This document shows positions 579-62,184 of a stretch of DNA of 64,000 nt, piece by piece (the stretch's first letter is position 1; the number at the start of each line of letters is the position of its first letter). The stretch lies in sequence record NC_054929.1. The stretch is one strand, 5' to 3'. Both the position numbers and the translations under genes were made by a program. Source of the stretch: Escherichia phage PE37. The notes below the pieces were generated by a model. It was not told where the DNA came from, did not search any database, and saw nothing but the letters and a program-made list of their open reading frames with translations.

Positions 579-1172
579 ATGAACACACTGAAGAAAATTG
601 TTGAGTTTATTCGCACTAAACTTGGTTCTGCTATGGCTAAAAATCTATCTGTTGAAGAGCAGTATACTGCCGCAGCAGCAAAATTGCTTGATAAAATTAA
701 AGATCTAAAAACTGCTTCTGTTAAATCTATTAATGAAGAAAAGCGTATTCGTGAACTTATTGTCGAAAAGAATAAGCAGGCCGAATCAAAAGAGCGTGAA
801 ATTCGCAAGCTCCTTTCGGAAGGTCAAGATGTAACAATGCATGCTAAACTTGGTTTACTATATCGTCGAACAGCTGAGCAGTTGACTACTAAAGCTGATG
901 GTTATGCTGAAATGCGAATTGAAATCGCCAAGAAAGTAGTTGAGTTAGATGATGCTCGCCAAGAACTTGCAGTTAAATTGGAATATATCCGTGAAACTCG
1001 TGCAGCGAATGCCCTTGGAATTAGTACTGCCGATGATGTAGTTGAAATTGCAGCGCTGACTAAGGTTGATATTGAAGATACTCTTGCTCGAGTTGAAACC
1101 TTTAACGGTAATATTTCTGGGGTTGAAACCACCTCTGCCGATGTTCAGGAATATATTAATTCTCTGAAATAA
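579..1172 (+). CDS. coiled-coil protein, PspA/IM30-like (e.6 position)
   Basis: ATG+SD; 197 aa helical, charge pattern resembling PspA/Vipp1 family. Confidence 0.6.
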
Positions 1173-1175
1173 TGA

Positions 1176-1199
1176 TAAGGGGCTTCGGCCCCTATTACT
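1176..1199 (+). terminator. UUCG-tetraloop hairpin (GGGGCTTCGGCCCC)
   Basis: perfect GC stem with UUCG loop; weak U tract. Confidence 0.5.
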
Positions 1200-1213
1200 T
1201 GGAGTAAGTAGGA

Positions 1214-1822
1214 ATGAAAATGCAAAGTGATTTCAATTCAATGTTTGAAGAGTTCCAAAGACAGGTTGATGTTCCAGACCAATTATTAAATGCTCTTAAA
1301 CGTATGGCAGAAGGACGTAATTATTATTGGGGTTCTTCATATGAAACTGTTGAAAGTCTTTCTGGAAGATTTTCTAGAGGTAAAAAGTCTTTAATACGTC
1401 CTGGAATACTTATTAACAGTATTGAATCAATTCATTTATTAACATGCGATTTTGACGTTGAATTTACTGATTTTGTTTCTCCTGAATGGACGGTCTGTTA
1501 TTTAAACGACGATTATGATTATCTTGGCGTTTATAGTTTAAGTGATGCATGGTTTAAACGTAATTTACAAAAGTCAAATTTATTCTATATTGATACTACT
1601 GTAAAATTTCAGGGCAAGAAATATTTCTTTACTCTTATAGTTGACTCTGAAACAAAATATGAAAATAAACGTATTCTTAGTAAAAAGAATATCTTAACTA
1701 CTGTCGATGATCTTTTTGATAAATTCGTAGAAAATCCCAATTTTGAAAGCGATTTATTATTAGAAAAATTTGTTAAGGAATGTAGAGAATATGTCAAAAC
1801 CATCACTATACCTTCCAAGTAA
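1214..1822 (+). CDS. hypothetical protein (e.5 position)
   Basis: ATG+SD GGAG; 202 aa. Confidence 0.65.
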   Translation: MKMQSDFNSMFEEFQRQVDVPDQLLNALKRMAEGRNYYWGSSYETVESLSGRFSRGKKSLIRPGILINSIESIHLLTCDFDVEFTDFVSPEWTVCYLNDDYDYLGVYSLSDAWFKRNLQKSNLFYIDTTVKFQGKKYFFTLIVDSETKYENKRILSKKNILTTVDDLFDKFVENPNFESDLLLEKFVKECREYVKTITIPSK

Positions 1823-2183
1823 ACCGTTGAAGTATGAATTAAAGCGTCAGATAATTTCTACTGATGTGTTAATAGGTCCTGTGGTAGCTGTATCATTTGT
1901 GATTCTGCTGATTGCTGGAATGGTTATAGACGTTATGACTGATATTGGATCTAATACAATATTTGCGTCAACGCTAATTCTTCCATTGGTAGTTCCGCTT
2001 TTATTAGTACCTATAAATTGGATAGGATATTGGTATCAAGGAAGACACTATCGTAAACGTGTACGTGATTGGAAAGCCCAGTGCAAAAAGATTAAAAAAG
2101 AACATCAGCTTAAACTTGCTGCGTATGAATTTGATGAAATTATGAAATTTGTTAAGGAATCACGATGCAAAAGCCAAAACTAA
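1791..2183 (+). CDS. membrane protein, e.x paralog family
   Basis: in-frame ATG at 1791; hydrophobic segments; C-terminal motif shared with neighbours. Confidence 0.55.
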   Translation: MSKPSLYLPSKPLKYELKRQIISTDVLIGPVVAVSFVILLIAGMVIDVMTDIGSNTIFASTLILPLVVPLLLVPINWIGYWYQGRHYRKRVRDWKAQCKKIKKEHQLKLAAYEFDEIMKFVKESRCKSQN

Positions 2184-2527
2184 ATAAAGCCAAATATTCG
2201 TTTCCAGAGGCACTATTAATTCTTGCCGTATCAGCATTTACAGCTCTTGCGGGTAGTCTTATTGGATTATTAATTGACTGTTTTATTTTAAACATCGACG
2301 GCACAGTAATTATAACAGAGGTTTGGAGTGAACTTCGTTATACTATAGCGATTTCATTATTTTCATTCTTTGGTACCATGTTATATTTTCATTATGATAA
2401 TTTTAAAATAAATTGGCAAAGAAAAAAAGATTACAAAATACAATTAAAAGAATATAATAGCTACATGTCTTATATTGAAAAAGAATCAATGGAAGAGTTT
2501 GTGAGTGATTGTAGGAAAATTAAATGA
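2165..2527 (+). CDS. membrane protein, e.x paralog family
   Basis: ATG; 2-3 TM segments; C-terminal ...DCRKIK. Confidence 0.6.
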   Translation: MQKPKLNKAKYSFPEALLILAVSAFTALAGSLIGLLIDCFILNIDGTVIITEVWSELRYTIAISLFSFFGTMLYFHYDNFKINWQRKKDYKIQLKEYNSYMSYIEKESMEEFVSDCRKIK

Positions 2528-3012
2528 TTTTAAAAACTCGCTGGTATGATTTAGATGACGGGGATGATGGCATTTCAGTTAATAGAGTTGACTGGAATGG
2601 CTGTTCCGAAGATATGAAAAATTTGCTGATTAGGGAGTTTAGAATGGGATATCAACCAGTTAAGCCATCTACTGCAACAGATGATAAATTCGTGTGTATT
2701 CATAATGGTCGCGCTAAATTAACGAACGCTGATTGGTTCACAGATAAAATTATGATTCTGTGGTATATTATTAGTCTTCCTGTGACATCATTCGTATTTT
2801 ACTTTTTTATAAAAAATCCAATGGACAGAATAGGAGATTGGATTCTTTTAACCATACTTGTTAATATTTTTACTGCAGCAATATTATCTGGGATATGGTA
2901 CACGTTCATTGAAATGCCATGGCGTTTACGCAGACAACAAAAGATTTTTGATGAAAAGAAATATACCCAAAATTTAAATAGCTTTATCACTGAATGCAGG
3001 AAATTAAAATGA
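2524..3012 (+). CDS. membrane protein, e.x paralog family (e.2 position)
   Basis: ATGA overlap with upstream gene; TM segments; C-terminal ...ECRKLK. Confidence 0.6.
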   Translation: MILKTRWYDLDDGDDGISVNRVDWNGCSEDMKNLLIREFRMGYQPVKPSTATDDKFVCIHNGRAKLTNADWFTDKIMILWYIISLPVTSFVFYFFIKNPMDRIGDWILLTILVNIFTAAILSGIWYTFIEMPWRLRRQQKIFDEKKYTQNLNSFITECRKLK

Positions 3013-3449
3013 AAACATTATCAGTTGGTATTATCTTTATGACAGAAGATAAAGATTTATTTATGGGTCGGGTTACTGGTTCTCGTAAGCCTGGAATGAT
3101 GGCACATCGCTGGGATATTCCAAAGGGCCGTGTAGAAAATTCTGATTTAAGCGCATTAGATGCAGCACGAAGAGAATGTTTAGAAGAGACTGGTTTTAGC
3201 AATTATAATCCAGACCTTCTAGAAGACCTAGGTGTATTTAAATATTCTAGTAATAAAGACTTACAGTTATTTTATTATACGATTCCAGTAGAGCATGAGA
3301 TGTTCAGAAATTGCCATTGCGAGTCTTATTTTGAAAATAAAGATGGTGTTATGATTCCAGAGATGGACGCTTTTGCTCTTATTCCTCATACTCAGTGGCA
3401 ATATGTGATGGGTCCTTCACTTTACCGAATAATGAACAACCTCTTTTAA
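3009..3449 (+). CDS. nudE: Nudix hydrolase NudE
   Basis: Nudix box G-x5-E-x7-REC-x-EETG; immediately upstream of e as in T4; start 3009 vs 2994 uncertain. Confidence 0.75.
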   Translation: MKTLSVGIIFMTEDKDLFMGRVTGSRKPGMMAHRWDIPKGRVENSDLSALDAARRECLEETGFSNYNPDLLEDLGVFKYSSNKDLQLFYYTIPVEHEMFRNCHCESYFENKDGVMIPEMDAFALIPHTQWQYVMGPSLYRIMNNLF

Positions 3450-4020
<571 letters not shown>

Positions 4021-4465: not shown

Positions 4466-4939
4466 ATGAAAACATATCAAGAATTTATTACTGAAGCAGC
4501 TATTAATTCTCAAATTATTGCTGAATCTTTTACTGATCTTTTGAAATTTAAAAAAGGTCAAAAAATCACTGCTGTATTGGATGATGGTACAGAAGTTGAG
4601 ATGGATGTACAGGGATATAATTATGCAGTAGATGGAAAACTGTATAATAAATCTCATGCTAAATTTGATTCATTTGACGACTTTGTTAATACAGTTGAAG
4701 ATGAAAAAACTCGTCGATCCATTGCAACTGGTGATGCTAAGGTTCTTATGGCACATGGTCATGAACGCATTCGCGCTAAACAGAATAAAATGGGCGAAGA
4801 TAATTTCGCATTAGTTGGTTATCAATCTGGTAAACAAACTTATGGTTATCAGCGTACTGCTACCATGTATAATAAAAATGGTAAAATTGCCTTTGTGAAT
4901 AGTAAGGGTTCTATTCAGTACGTTAAATCGTTCAAATAA
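4466..4939 (+). CDS. capsid internal protein (Ip family)
   Basis: N-terminal capsid-targeting sequence MKTYQEFITE with protease site after E; 157 aa, length differs from T4 ipII/ipIII. Confidence 0.75.
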   Translation: MKTYQEFITEAAINSQIIAESFTDLLKFKKGQKITAVLDDGTEVEMDVQGYNYAVDGKLYNKSHAKFDSFDDFVNTVEDEKTRRSIATGDAKVLMAHGHERIRAKQNKMGEDNFALVGYQSGKQTYGYQRTATMYNKNGKIAFVNSKGSIQYVKSFK

Positions 4940-8950: not shown

Positions 8951-9134
8951 TCCTAAAAACAAAGTGGAAATTATTCGTCAATGGGAACGCATTTGCCGTA
9001 CTAAATGCCCAATTAATAGTCCACATGATGTAGATAAAGACTATATTGGAACATTCGTTGAATATACCTTTATTGATAGGAAAGGTCGTAAACAACATGT
9101 AGAAGAATATTGCTTAAAGGTTACATGGTTATGA
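8922..9134 (+). CDS. hypothetical protein
   Basis: ATG; 70 aa. Confidence 0.5.
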   Translation: MKVHYPHPFDPKNKVEIIRQWERICRTKCPINSPHDVDKDYIGTFVEYTFIDRKGRKQHVEEYCLKVTWL

Positions 9135-9337
9135 GCCAAACTAGTATTCTTAAAAATGCTCATTGTGAAAAGTGTGAATGGCCAGTTGTTTTTGCTTTAT
9201 GTAATGATGAAATGGCTTGTGATTTCGATTATTGGTGCTATTGTTCCAATAAAGGATGCATCAATCATAAAGGTGAAGGATTTTATTCAGGATTTTATCC
9301 TTATCCTGATTTCGTTAAAGAAGGTAAACCGAAATGA
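9131..9337 (+). CDS. Cys-rich small protein (probable zinc binding)
   Basis: ATGA overlap; CEKCEW...CDFDYWCYC...GC. Confidence 0.5.
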   Translation: MSQTSILKNAHCEKCEWPVVFALCNDEMACDFDYWCYCSNKGCINHKGEGFYSGFYPYPDFVKEGKPK

Positions 9338-9507
9338 ATAGTTTTGAGTTACAATATGAAGTGTTACGTGAGCTTGATAATTTAATTGAACTCGCTGCTA
9401 ATAAAGGTTTTGCCATTGGAATCGGTCAAAAAGATACTGACCATTTAACTACGGAAATATTTAAGCAAAAGCGAATTATTTTAAAACTCCTGGAAATTAA
9501 TATATGA
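9334..9507 (+). CDS. small hypothetical protein (57 aa)
   Basis: ATGA overlaps at both ends; not in ORF track. Confidence 0.45.
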   Translation: MNSFELQYEVLRELDNLIELAANKGFAIGIGQKDTDHLTTEIFKQKRIILKLLEINI

Positions 9508-9689
9508 GTCTGAGTAAAGAACAAAAAGATAAATTGTTTGAGCTTATCCATGAACTTCTAGATGAGCATGCAGAAGCAAACACCTTTTATGATGAATACG
9601 GCCCGCTATCTCCCGAACAACAAGAAGAATTTGCTGACCGGTTTGATAAGAAAGAAAACGAATTAATAGCTTATGTGAATACGCTTTAA
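9504..9689 (+). CDS. hypothetical acidic protein
   Basis: ATG; 61 aa. Confidence 0.5.
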   Translation: MSLSKEQKDKLFELIHELLDEHAEANTFYDEYGPLSPEQQEEFADRFDKKENELIAYVNTL

Positions 9690-14999: not shown

Positions 15000-15055
15000 A
15001 AATTTTTCACAAAGTTGTTTACAAGCATAAAGCTTTATGGTACTATACAACTATC
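15000..15055 (+). promoter_or_regulatory. early promoter
   Basis: GTTTAC 15017-15022, 18 bp, TACTAT 15041-15046. Confidence 0.7.
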
Positions 15056-15080
15056 AACTGATACGGATTTGGAGAATAAA

Positions 15081-16454: not shown

Positions 16455-16492
16455 TTGTTTACAAGACTGTTCCTCTGTGGTACTATACAACT
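16445..16492 (+). promoter_or_regulatory. early promoter
   Basis: GTTTAC 16456-16461, 18 bp, TACTAT. Confidence 0.7.
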
Positions 16493-16514
16493 ATCAACTA
16501 CGGAGGAACAGAAA

Positions 16515-38905: not shown

Positions 38906-38928
38906 AAGGGGCTTCGGCCCCTTATTTG
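38906..38928 (+). terminator. rho-independent terminator (UUCG loop)
   Basis: GGGGCTTCGGCCCC followed by TTATTT. Confidence 0.75.
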
Positions 38929-41779: not shown

Positions 41780-41830
41780 AATTTTCACAAAACTGTTTAC
41801 AAGAATGTTCTTCCATGGTACTATACAACT
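41780..41830 (+). promoter_or_regulatory. early promoter
   Basis: GTTTAC 41795-41800, 18 bp, TACTAT; conserved leader follows. Confidence 0.7.
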
Positions 41831-41861
41831 ATCAACTACTGATACGGATTTGGATAATAAA

Positions 41862-48204: not shown

Positions 48205-48387
48205 ATGGAATTGGTAAAGGTAGTTTTTATGGGGTGGTTTAAGAATGAAAGCATGTTTACTAAAGAAACCACAATGATGAAAGATGACGTTCAATGGGCT
48301 ACTACTCAGTATGCTGAAGTTAATAAAGCATTAGTTAAAGCTTTCATTGATGACAAGAAAGTATGTGAAGTAGATTGCCGAGGATAA
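48205..48387 (+). CDS. dmd: antitoxin Dmd
   Basis: 60 aa, MELVKVVFMGWFKNESMFTKE..., matches T4 Dmd (61.5). Confidence 0.85.
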   Translation: MELVKVVFMGWFKNESMFTKETTMMKDDVQWATTQYAEVNKALVKAFIDDKKVCEVDCRG

Positions 48388-49638: not shown

Positions 49639-49803
49639 ATGAAAACATATAAAGAATTTATCAAAGAAGATATGGTCGCTGGAGATTCAGGTGGTAATCC
49701 TGAAAATATCTCTACTGGAACAACGTCAGGCGCTGTAGTAAATAAAGGTCCTGAACAGATTCCTAAAAAGAAGAAAGAGGAATCTAAAGAAAAAGAAGAG
49801 TAA
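49639..49803 (+). CDS. small protein with capsid-targeting-like leader MKTYKEFIKE
   Basis: ATG 1 nt after upstream stop; N-terminus resembles Ip capsid-targeting sequence; not in ORF track. Confidence 0.45.
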   Translation: MKTYKEFIKEDMVAGDSGGNPENISTGTTSGAVVNKGPEQIPKKKKEESKEKEE

Positions 49804-59276: not shown

Positions 59277-59522
59277 GTGGAAATAACTAAAGACCAGTTT
59301 TATCTGCTTCAAGATAAAGTGAGCGAAATTTATGAAATAGCTTATAGTAAAAATCGCAAAAACGTGAAAATTGAATCGGGAAAGTTAATGCTTCAATTGG
59401 AAGAAATTGAACGAGATTTAATTGCGTTAGAATTCTTTTGTGGTGAAGTGAAAACTGTTACAATCAGTGATTATGTTTTAGGTGAAATTAGCCATCTTTA
59501 TAAGGCGGTTATTAATGATTGA
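59277..59522 (+). CDS. hypothetical protein
   Basis: ORF with GTG start after SD-like GAGGAAG. Confidence 0.45.
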   Translation: MEITKDQFYLLQDKVSEIYEIAYSKNRKNVKIESGKLMLQLEEIERDLIALEFFCGEVKTVTISDYVLGEISHLYKAVIND

Positions 59523-59724
59523 ATTAAGTTTGCATCAGTTTAAATCTCTTGTGGCAAATGTTAAAGCTGTCATTCAAGAAAATTCAGGACCTGATAATGT
59601 TACTATTCGCGAAAAAGCTTTAAAGATAGTATACAGTCTTGAAGAGATACAAAAAGATATTGAATCTATGGCAAAATTTATTGATGAGCCCATTAATAAA
59701 GTTATATCCAAGATTATACTGTAG
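59515..59724 (+). CDS. hypothetical protein
   Basis: in-frame ATG at 59515 overlapping upstream stop. Confidence 0.45.
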   Translation: MIELSLHQFKSLVANVKAVIQENSGPDNVTIREKALKIVYSLEEIQKDIESMAKFIDEPINKVISKIIL

Positions 59725-62140: not shown

Positions 62141-62184
62141 TATCAATATCAACTACTGATACAGAAAACAACTTGGAGAATAAA

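Follow-up and report, generated by a model that had tools for sequence, protein, structure and literature searches.

The capsid targeting sequence of the T4 internal proteins, reportedly described by Mullaney and Black in 1996, is an N-terminal peptide of the form MKTYQEFI[AT]E. RegA operators such as those of rIIB (AAAAUUAUGUAC), gene 44 (AAAUUAUGAUU) and dexA (AAAAUUUAAUGUUU) are unstructured, A+U-rich RNA sites that include the AUG (PMC3014915). PeSLs are repeats at the gene borders of a hyperplastic region, where they serve as recombination sites for the clean gain or loss of whole genes (PMC2839356, 2010).

Comparison of these systems with a block of Escherichia phage PE37 (NC_054929.1) shows partial likeness to each. 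Positions 1214-3012 of the window, meaning the whole 64-kb stretch of DNA analyzed, hold the early genes e.5, e.4, e.3 and e.2, which lie in tight overlaps between the hairpin that follows e.6 and the Nudix hydrolase gene nudE, and whose products carry a related peptide at or near the C-terminus. Like the capsid targeting sequence, this tail is a short constant peptide on polymorphic, fast-evolving proteins whose genes share a genome region, and both contain hydrophobic-x-x-F-I-x-E-small: the window gene at 4466-4939 starts MKTYQEFITEA, and e.2 ends LNSFITEC. In contrast, the targeting sequence is N-terminal, cleaved by the prohead protease and found on soluble proteins, whereas most carriers of the C-terminal tail are membrane proteins. 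The match spans 4-5 residues and the window proteome contains 9 instances of Phi..F[IV].E, so the resemblance may be coincidence. As with PeSLs, the repeats at the gene junctions also hold deletion end points (a 30-nt patch for e.2, a 21-nt overlap for an e.4-like gene). PeSLs, however, are intergenic and carry a promoter and a terminator, whereas the window repeats are coding (tail plus the next Shine-Dalgarno [SD] site and start), 17-30 nt long and imperfect, at junctions with no spacer, no stem-loop and no promoter signal above chance. The likeness to RegA operators is confined to the starts of e.2 and nudE, which are A+U-rich and unstructured, have a 5' A-run and include the AUG.

Identity and architecture of the e.5-e.2 block

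By DNA identity, profile matches and gene order, we assign the block as e.5-e.4-e.3-e.2 of a T4-type (Tequatrovirus) phage (Table 1). Its DNA is 92-97% identical to that of T4-type phages, and positions 1172-3486 are 92% identical to T4, in which the region is annotated as e.2-e.8 or msp1-8. The orthologue test gave PHROG matches with E values of 1e-58 to 1e-108, a fitting synteny from e.6 to nudE and proteins 83-97% identical. The T4 orthologues (UniProt P39223, P39222, P32274 and P32273; Pfam Phage_T4_Y06P, Y06O and Y06M) are labeled as conserved hypothetical or predicted membrane proteins and nothing more. T4's own e.2 has a 1-nt frameshift that leaves a product of 102 aa without the second membrane segment and the tail; the gene is intact here at 162 aa.

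Table 1. Genes, tail motifs and junction features of the e.5-nudE region (window positions)
Feature	Position	Strand	Details
UUCG hairpin, GC-rich, e.6/e.5 gap	1176..1195	+	AAGGGGCTTCGGCCCCT; terminator scan
e.5 (msp4)	1214..1822	+	202 aa, soluble; PHROG 2607, E 1e-108; Pfam Phage_T4_Y06P on orthologue
e.5 tail motif	1760..1786	+	L-E-K-F-V-K-E-C-R; FVKECREY, F codon at 1769
e.5/e.4 junction	SD 1775-1780, ATG 1791	+	AAGGAA, in K-E codons of e.5 motif
e.4 (msp5)	1791..2183	+	130 aa, membrane, ATG at 1791; PHROG 2604
e.4 tail motif	2139..2165	+	I-M-K-F-V-K-E-S-R; FVKESRCK, F codon at 2148
e.4/e.3 junction	SD 2154-2159, ATG 2165	+	AAGGAA; ATG overlaps e.4 motif Arg codon
Exact 16-mer (family D7)	1766-1781 and 2145-2160	+	AAATTTGTTAAGGAAT; e.5/e.4 and e.4/e.3 junctions
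e.3 (msp6)	2165..2527	+	120 aa, membrane, probable paralogue of e.4; PHROG 2330
e.3 tail motif	2489..2515	+	M-E-E-F-V-S-D-C-R; FVSDCRKIK, F codon at 2498
e.3/e.2 junction	SD 2513-2518, ATGA overlap 2524	+	AGGAAA, in R-K codons of e.3
e.2 (msp7)	2524..3012	+	162 aa, membrane; PHROG 2203; Pfam Phage_T4_Y06M
e.2 tail motif	2974..3000	+	L-N-S-F-I-T-E-C-R; FITECRKLK, F codon at 2983
e.2/nudE junction	SD 2998-3003, ATGA overlap 3009	+	AGGAAA
nudE (e.1), Nudix hydrolase	3009..3449	+	Pfam NUDIX, E 3e-14; overlapping run ends here

The hairpin marks the upstream edge of a promoter-less block running from e.5 to nudE; the T4 record GenBank L13089 has a stem_loop annotated at the matching position, and a second, identical copy lies at 38906 in the window. 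A scan found 21 promoter-like matches against 21.4 expected, and scan counts for internal terminators and promoters were no higher than in shuffled sequence. The T4 orthologues are expressed early and are dispensable in the laboratory: T4-infected cells synthesize the e.5-e.2 proteins (PMC9697503 supplements), and knock-down of T4 e.2-e.6 left laboratory fitness unchanged (PMC11879866 supplement 15). We found no functional study of e.2-e.6 or msp4-6 in the literature, and the annotations and literature searched on these genes make no mention of a shared tail.

A reading made from the sequence alone had described the block as an array of membrane-protein genes. This holds for e.4, e.3 and e.2, each of which encodes a small protein with two hydrophobic segments, and fails for e.5, in which no hydrophobic segment was found. 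These three membrane proteins lie in the inner membrane with cytoplasmic N- and C-termini, as the basic flanks of their segments place both ends, and hence the tail, in the cytoplasm. The e.4 protein is N-in/C-in with two helices, including a long basic C-terminal one; a low-confidence AlphaFold model (pLDDT 63), used for helix extent only, places the helices at residues 24-49 and 55-129, with the second reaching the C-terminus. In e.2, a soluble N-terminal domain of ~75 residues precedes hydrophobic segments at ~76-96 and 106-129 and then the tail. An AlphaFold model of e.5 built from a single sequence was unusable (pLDDT 41).

Searches of a local copy of Pfam, NCBIfam, PADLOC and the PDB with the four proteins and an e.5 family alignment, covering known families as well as defence and anti-defence catalogues, returned nothing above threshold. 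An exhaustive HMMER search of 1.84 billion representatives with an e.4+e.3 profile retrieved 9 clusters, all of them T4-like, indicating that the e.4/e.3 family has no distant relatives. The "sulfurtransferase" label given to e.3 and e.4 in some records is unsupported by profile searches. The coiled-coil look of e.6 raised the possibility of a PspA/ESCRT-III-like protein, which found no backing from Pfam or PDB profile searches.

The shared tail and the relatedness of its carriers

The related end peptides reported for four consecutive genes are all present in the sequence, as F-[VI]-x-[ED]-[CS]-R located 3-11 residues before the stop in 4/4 genes. That the genes "end with" the peptide is accurate as to its place near the C-terminus and too strict for e.5 and e.4, in which 11 and 5 more residues, respectively, follow the motif. 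Six-frame translation of the window yielded 5 matches to F[VI].[ED][CS]R, and four of the five are the ends of e.5-e.2. Among the 63 tight junctions of the window (gap <=5 nt), these four have the motif and the other 59 do not. When the pattern was relaxed to [FW][IV]..[CVIMS][RK] within the last 24 residues, the same four genes were recovered out of 126, at an expectation of ~0.01 per tail. With the exact 16-mer shared by two of the junctions, these counts place the pattern above chance level.

Compositional convergence, in which AT-rich codons and an SD site within the coding sequence would yield similar peptides by chance, has one point in its favor: the unrelated small gene at 9125-9337 ends DFVKEGKPK with an SD in its K-E codons, showing that SD-bearing K-E pairs can arise independently. 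Both the counts above and the recurrence of the motif in independent genera, again in the e.6-nudE interval, refute this explanation, and we give it almost no credence. The motif-like C-termini of the genes at 9125-9337, 48205-48387 (Dmd) and 59515-59724 were set aside as partial matches in unrelated families.

The four genes had also been proposed to be tandem duplicates. This is probably correct for e.4 and e.3, which hhalign aligns end to end over 111 columns (probability 89.7%, E 1.9e-6) and, with the tail removed, over 95 columns (E 7.6e-4). Both start with M-x-K-P-x-L and have two hydrophobic segments, the second followed by I-N-W. For e.2 and e.5, alignment to e.4/e.3 was limited to the last 16-25 columns, and without the tail the hhalign probability fell below 1% and BLASTP found no match. 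As e.5 and e.2 are unrelated to the pair beyond the last ~20 residues, a four-fold duplication is not supported, and only the tail is shared. The genes e.4, e.3 and e.2 are adjacent, on the same strand and of similar size and architecture, e.5 differing in its lack of a membrane segment; in PHROGs the four window genes fall into four separate families.

Peptide versus RNA at the gene junctions

From e.5/e.4 to e.2/nudE, the genes overlap by 32, 19, 4 and 4 nt, and at all four junctions the SD is embedded in the coding sequence of the preceding gene, 5-10 nt ahead of the ATG. The earlier statement that the motif DNA supplies the ribosome-binding site and start of the next gene is correct for the window, where the SDs lie in or right after the motif in 4/4 cases. 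RNA structure was not found at the four junctions (z-scores of +2.0, -0.4, -0.9 and +1.4). The SDs are thus not masked, making independent initiation as possible as coupling. Because the tail lies at the 3' end and the next SD and start overlap it there, the gene boundaries carry patches of imperfect homology of 17-30 nt. A further direct repeat, D11 (2085-2099/2424-2438), has low-complexity copies that are out of frame and was taken as chance.

These SD positions, the exact 16-mer at two junctions, the e.4/e.3 paralogy and the presence of deletion end points at junctions would all fit four copies of one ancestral gene in which the conserved element is the DNA or RNA of the coupling junction (SD plus start), with the peptides as a mere read-out. 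The absence of similarity between e.5 or e.2 and e.4/e.3 once the tail is removed speaks against common ancestry, as do the 59 other tight window junctions, which have SDs in coding sequence without this peptide, against the junction RNA.

A survey of 30 tails from 8 loci bears on the same question. The tails have F in 28 and W in 2, I in 23 and V in 7, C in 23, and R in 27 and K in 3; position -3 is hydrophobic in 27/30, an acidic residue stands mid-motif in 18/30, and the motif is C-terminal in 30/30. In the e.4 lineage, S, V, I or M stands in place of Cys, and Klebsiella, Serratia and Enterobacter phages vary at the acidic position, which reduces the strict core to a hydrophobic stripe and F-[IV]-x-x-x-[RK]. 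The codons beneath these residues are not fixed: Cys is encoded by TGT (11) or TGC (12), and Arg alternates between AGR and CGN codons (AGA 9, AGG 4, CGA 3, CGT 7, CGC 4). The SD likewise moves among loci, falling on K-E codons, on R-K codons or outside the motif altogether (the e.5-like genes of L009-L013), and the L021 gene at 9287-9595 has the motif without an overlapping next gene, the next start being 29 nt off with its own SD. The codon data largely refute the junction-RNA explanation, which together with single ancestry we regard as distinctly unlikely. The conserved translational-coupling junction of the earlier reading is better seen as a by-product of a selected peptide.

The persistence of the tail points the same way. 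Overall identity among orthologues is 19-51%, with 3-8 of 9 tail positions kept, so that no other part is as well conserved as the tail; for comparison, the neighbors e.6 and nudE are 75-88% and 60% identical. With the tail removed, the carriers form 13 BLAST-unlinked groups. The motif is present in at least seven phage genera, and within e.6..nudE of other genera it is found in 5/7, 4/7, 4/12, 4/13 and 3/12 genes, versus 0/32, 0/16, 0/13, 0/30 and 1/17 genes outside that interval. Taken together, these comparisons indicate that selection on the peptide maintains the motif in otherwise unrelated or fast-diverging proteins.

Part of the junction could also be a candidate RegA operator, which would account for R-K-[IL]-K-stop at the ends of e.3 and e.2. 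The starts of e.2 (AAAAUUAAAUG) and nudE (AAAUUAAAAUG) resemble operators, no more than 7 of the window's gene starts fit the pattern A3-5 UU [AU]0-4 AUG, and the window junctions are unstructured. Such an operator, however, would cover only the last 4 codons of 2/4 genes and not the F-[IV]-x-E-C-R core, and in other genera the ends are ...ECRK-stop or ...ECKS-stop with differing RNA (UGCCGUAAAUGA, UGUAAAUCAUGA). We therefore consider this explanation quite improbable.

Gene loss and a proposed role for the tail

Crossing-over at the junctions had been suggested as a means of changing copy number. Comparison among relatives bears this out for loss, with end points in the patches, and no gain was seen. 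In Tequatrovirus records, nudE is present in 505 and e.2 in 446, leaving ~59/505 (about 12%) without e.2; among the 60 best matches, 42 have a contiguous e.3->nudE junction. The gene is precisely absent from RB32, RB33, PP01, PST, ZN18 and others, with the crossover falling within a 30-nt patch common to the e.3/e.2 and e.2/nudE junctions. Since e.2 is also frameshifted in T4, at least one tail carrier is dispensable. Some Dhakavirus/Gaprivervirus-type contigs lack an e.4-like gene, the junction showing a 21-nt overlap. In P0142 and P0193 the breaks lie inside e.4 rather than at a junction; in P0142 the first membrane segment is interrupted. Phage OP555981.1 carries an e.4::e.2 chimera. Two e.3 matches were seen in a single record, BYEP02, which contains 77-bp tandem repeats at two places and was rejected as an assembly artefact. 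The aligned end points indicate that recombination in the junction patches has removed whole genes cleanly in nature; clean border deletions could also reflect selection for viable products and not the homology itself.

By prediction, the tail motif closes a helix that is hydrophobic on one face. Our best guess is that the tail serves for docking in the cytoplasm: its helix would bring varied proteins to a single shared partner on the cytoplasmic side of the membrane, and the overlapping starts would give coupled, co-ordinated synthesis of the carriers. The tightly conserved neighbor e.6 is a candidate partner, on the basis of its co-occurrence with the tail; against this, Pseudotevenvirus possesses e.6 and has no tail carriers. 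Overall, we think it probable that e.5-e.2 carry a docking tail selected as peptide, with homology at the junctions behind the loss of genes.

A generic amphipathic C-terminal helix, as in MinD and FtsA, could instead bind the inner leaflet with no protein partner. The hydrophobic residues at -3, 0, +1 and +4 followed by basic residues, the location at or near the C-terminus, and the soluble carriers e.5, L021 9287-9595 and L028 8848-9147 are all consistent with such a helix. Lipid-binding helices typically conserve character and not sequence, whereas the F, Cys and Arg of the tail are nearly invariant and an acidic residue interrupts the motif in the majority of surveyed tails; in addition, e.5-type tails run 9-15 polar residues past the motif. 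This makes binding to lipid alone an unlikely explanation.

Docking to a common partner may have a wider form, which we put forward tentatively and hold to be doubtful. The tail could be a portable address tag that delivers polymorphic early proteins, both soluble and membrane, to one shared inner-membrane site or partner, possibly by a mechanism related to that of the capsid targeting sequence. If so, the e.6-to-nudE interval would be a cassette rack in which effector bodies would be exchanged next to a constant tag and constant boundary homology.

For annotation, e.5-e.2 can be treated as a motif-linked set even though family catalogues split them, and the "sulfurtransferase" label is unfounded. 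The e.2-e.8 region belongs to the unexplained "hyperplastic" blocks of T4, which no other phage rivals in depth of study. With a length of six to nine residues, the tail has been kept in at least seven genera and in up to 13 carrier groups unlinked by sequence while the rest of the protein changed, and it may serve as bait for its partner and hence lead to the function of the block. Short coding homologies at overlapping gene borders also point to a second way in which T4-type genomes can lose genes module by module, distinct from intergenic promoter/terminator cassettes.

The shared tail of the e.5-e.2 array

The array of four consecutive genes with a shared C-terminal tail is a real feature of the PE37 genome: the observation made in a sequence-only reading is confirmed, and its interpretation is partly supported. 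The window represents a Tequatrovirus (T4-type) genome, and its first 4.5 kb matches 702 phage records, with identity reaching 97% in the closest of them and 92-93% in T4. The genes run on the + strand, the direction of early transcription in the window, and are already known T4 open reading frames, named within the series msp1-msp8 in an old GenBank entry, whose only annotated promoters precede e.8, e.7, and e.6 and which marks a stem-loop following e.6. Recent versions of Pfam assign them to distinct families (Phage_T4_Y06P, Y06O, and Y06M), and PHROGs likewise places e.5, e.4, e.3, and e.2 in four different families. In T4 infection, all of these genes are transcribed early and their products are detected as proteins (PMC9697503 supplements), and laboratory knock-down of T4 e.2-e.6 caused no fitness defect (PMC11879866 supplement 15).

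Features of the e.6-nudE interval (window positions)
Feature	Position	Strand	Remarks
e.6	579-1172	+	left neighbor of the e.5-e.2 block
GC-rich UUCG hairpin	1176-1195	+	between e.6 and e.5
e.5	1214-1822	+	202 aa
e.4	1791-2183	+	130 aa
e.3	2165-2527	+	120 aa
e.2	2524-3012	+	162 aa
nudE	3009-3449	+	right neighbor of e.2; lysozyme gene e and denV lie beyond

The four peptides (FVKECREY, FVKESRCK, FVSDCRKIK, and FITECRKLK) were found where the earlier reading placed them, and, as it stated, the Shine-Dalgarno (SD) site and ATG of the next gene lie inside or just 3' of the motif codons. The peptide is not strictly terminal throughout, being followed by 11 more residues in e.5 and five in e.4, and the description of the array as membrane-protein genes does not hold for e.5, which is soluble and has no hydrophobic segment. 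Six-frame translation of the 64 kb window contains five matches to F[VI].[ED][CS]R, of which four lie at these gene ends. Of 63 window junctions at which the genes are no more than 5 nt apart, only the four in question carry the motif, so an SD site within coding sequence does not by itself yield the peptide. An exact 16-mer is common to the e.5/e.4 and e.4/e.3 junctions.

The proposal of tandem duplication stands for e.4 and e.3 and fails for the other two. BLASTP aligned e.4 and e.3 end to end (21% identity, E 0.034) and e.3 and e.2 over the last 14 residues only, and gave no alignment of e.5 to the other three. Comparison by hhalign of family profiles that covered several genera matched e.4 to e.3 at 89.7% probability (E 1.9e-6, 111 columns), and still did so with the tail removed (E 7.6e-4, 95 columns). 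Every pair involving e.2 or e.5 aligned over the last 16-25 columns only, and did not align once the tail was removed. Both e.4 and e.3 also carry an N-terminal M-x-K-P-x-L and an I-N-W after the second hydrophobic segment. Judged from these alignments and residues, e.4 and e.3 are tandem paralogs, whereas e.2, in which a soluble N-terminal domain is followed by two membrane segments and then the tail, and e.5 share the tail module alone with the others. Many NCBI records label e.3 and e.4 (1791-2527) "sulfurtransferase"; the label has no support from Pfam or NCBIfam models and looks like a propagated mis-annotation.

Peptide versus RNA constraint at the junctions

Loci of other genera were retrieved via the conserved neighbors e.6 and nudE. 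Motif-ended genes again occupy this interval in Mosigvirus, in Dhakavirus/Gaprivervirus-type contigs, and in Klebsiella, Serratia (Winklervirus), Enterobacter, and Aeromonas (Biquartavirus) phages; Pseudotevenvirus genomes (RB43, KPN-11i) possess e.6 and lack tail carriers. Among 30 tails, counting from the motif F as position 0, position -3 is hydrophobic in 27, position 0 is F in 28 and W in two, +1 is I in 23 and V in seven, +2 is K in 19, +3 is E in 18, +4 is C in 23, and +5 is R in 27 and K in three. The cysteine is encoded by TGT in 11 tails and TGC in 12, and the arginine by five codons drawn from both codon families, a mixture that indicates selection on the peptide. The SD site of the next gene varies in position, falling in the K-E codons, in the R-K codons, or several codons 3' of the motif, and no RNA structure was found at the junctions. 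One soluble protein, encoded downstream of nudE in a Klebsiella phage, ends in LFIAKCRAK, and the start of the next gene, which has an SD site of its own, is 29 nt away.

The tail also outlasts the bodies of its carriers: orthologs are 19-51% identical overall (compared with 75-88% for e.6 and 60% for nudE), while three to eight of nine tail positions are kept, and 31 carriers stripped of the tail fall into 13 clusters unlinked by BLAST. A relaxed motif finds three to five genes per locus within the interval and one of 108 in the flanks. Taken together, the codon use, shifting SD site, unstructured RNA, and persistence of the tail show that the constraint acts on the protein, with the SD fitted opportunistically into whichever codons permit it. 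The earlier identification of the conserved element as a translational-coupling junction is contradicted by the codon switching, the variable SD site, and the occurrence of the motif without an overlapping next gene. The initiation regions of e.2 and nudE (AAAAUUAAAUG and AAAUUAAAAUG; 2513-2527 and 2998-3012), which consist of the final codons of e.3 and e.2 plus the next AUG, resemble RegA operators (PMC3014915). Only seven gene starts in the window fit this pattern, and such putative sites could place a further constraint, at the RNA level, on these codons.

Gene loss at the junctions

In the phage collection, 505 Tequatrovirus records contain nudE (identity ≥90%), 501 contain e.5, 498 full-length e.4, 497 e.3, and 446 e.2. 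In RB33 and Yersinia phage ZN18, nudE directly follows e.3, and the 30 nt at the join can be aligned to both the e.3/e.2 and e.2/nudE junctions; of the 60 records that best match the RB33 join, 42 contain it as one contiguous stretch. This represents loss of e.2, since e.2-like genes adjoin nudE in other genera. The crossover point differs between the two phages, lying 3' of TGTAGGAAA in RB33 and 5' of TGCAGG in ZN18, which suggests either two separate events or a single one accompanied by a point change. Within the Dhakavirus/Gaprivervirus group, an e.4-like gene is present in contigs L008, L014, and L016 and missing from L009-L013 and L015, where a 21-nt stretch at the loss site aligns to both flanking junctions.

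Other changes fall elsewhere. The protein variant P0142 (phage OP555981.1) is an in-frame e.4::e.2 chimera from which e.3 was removed via TCCTGTG microhomology, the break lying where the first membrane segment begins and not at a junction, and variant P0193 has a deletion internal to e.4. In T4 records (L020 3080-3320; L001), e.2 is 102 aa, with a run of five A versus six here (2806-2812); beyond this 1-nt frameshift the remainder of the gene still reads intact in the +2 frame, and the laboratory T4 e.2 is therefore a pseudogene.

The natural junction losses show that the recombination mechanism put forward in the sequence-only reading operates, as microhomology-level deletion, on homology that exists because of the peptide tail. 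The suggested copy-number change was borne out for loss (e.2 and the e.4-like gene); no gain was found among relatives' records, the sole candidate being an assembly artefact. Such loss is alike in mechanism to PeSL-mediated modular shuffling (PMC2839356), but the defining promoter and stem-loop in the spacer are absent at the e.5-e.2 junctions. Elsewhere in the window, identical GC-rich hairpins with UUCG loops (AAGGGGCTTCGGCCCCT, AAGGGCTTCGGCCCTT) follow several genes (1177-1193, 38906-38922; 28388, 32027, 36738). The 23-nt leader before e.8 (ATACAGAAAACAACTTGGAGAAT; 1-23) recurs exactly at 62159-62181, before another gene at ~62182, and upstream strings such as TGGTACTATACAACTATCAACTAC occur three to four times each, with further leader or upstream repeats at 15037-15060, 16478-16500, 41815-41845, and 62147. 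These repeats are probably PeSL-type early-promoter/leader cassettes. At the e.7 position, between e.8 and e.6 (359-535), the gene differs among close relatives, its product having 58 aa in PE37, 111 aa in T4, and 172 aa in RB33; this position is a replacement hot spot adjoining the array.

Proposed role of the tail

Searches of profile, structure, and defense catalogues with the four proteins returned no match, and a search of 1.84 billion representatives yielded just nine clusters of the e.4/e.3 family. In the annotations and literature searched on e.2-e.6 and the msp genes, the shared tail is not described. The capsid-targeting sequence of internal proteins is likewise a constant short tag on polymorphic proteins with a similar local pattern, but it is N-terminal, the tail is C-terminal, and the match is short. 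This sequence begins two window genes, 4466-4939 (MKTYQEFITE(A)) and 49639-49803 (MKTYKEFIKE), the latter encoding an acidic, lysine-rich product of only 54 aa.

Another C-terminal motif family appears, from its sequences, in a second tandem set of two to five small soluble proteins (70-105 aa) encoded between the e.3-like and e.2-like genes of Mosigvirus, Dhakavirus/Gaprivervirus, Serratia, and Enterobacter phages (contigs L006-L016, L023, L026, and L028; e.g., L008 7862-9112 and L023 4830-5417). These end in W-[VIF]-x-S-S-x-x-C-stop (GAWVSSSEMC, GGWVSSSAEC, GFWFNSSMSC, KIWYPSSC), a tail not present in the window.

Hydrophobic positions -3, 0, +1, and +4 (often +7) of the e.5-e.2 tail form one helix face, flanked by the acidic residue and the Arg. 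In the model that AlphaFold gave for e.4, a single helix extends from the second membrane segment as far as residue 129, and confidence is highest (77-78) over residues 90-120. By the positive-inside rule and inspection of the sequences, the basic residues on either side place both termini of the hairpins in the cytoplasm. The tail might be a generic lipid-binding helix, but this fits less well with specific F, C, and R residues strongly conserved on diverse, fast-evolving carriers and with confinement to one genome interval; for these reasons we favor a docking helix for one common partner. The neighboring e.6, found in 1105 phage records in all, is much better conserved than its neighbors across genera (~50% identity in Aeromonas phages) and is predicted to be largely coiled coil. 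Its PspA-like character is one of appearance, with no profile or PDB match in support. The tail may thus dock its varied carriers onto a single protein, for which e.6 is a candidate by co-occurrence only.
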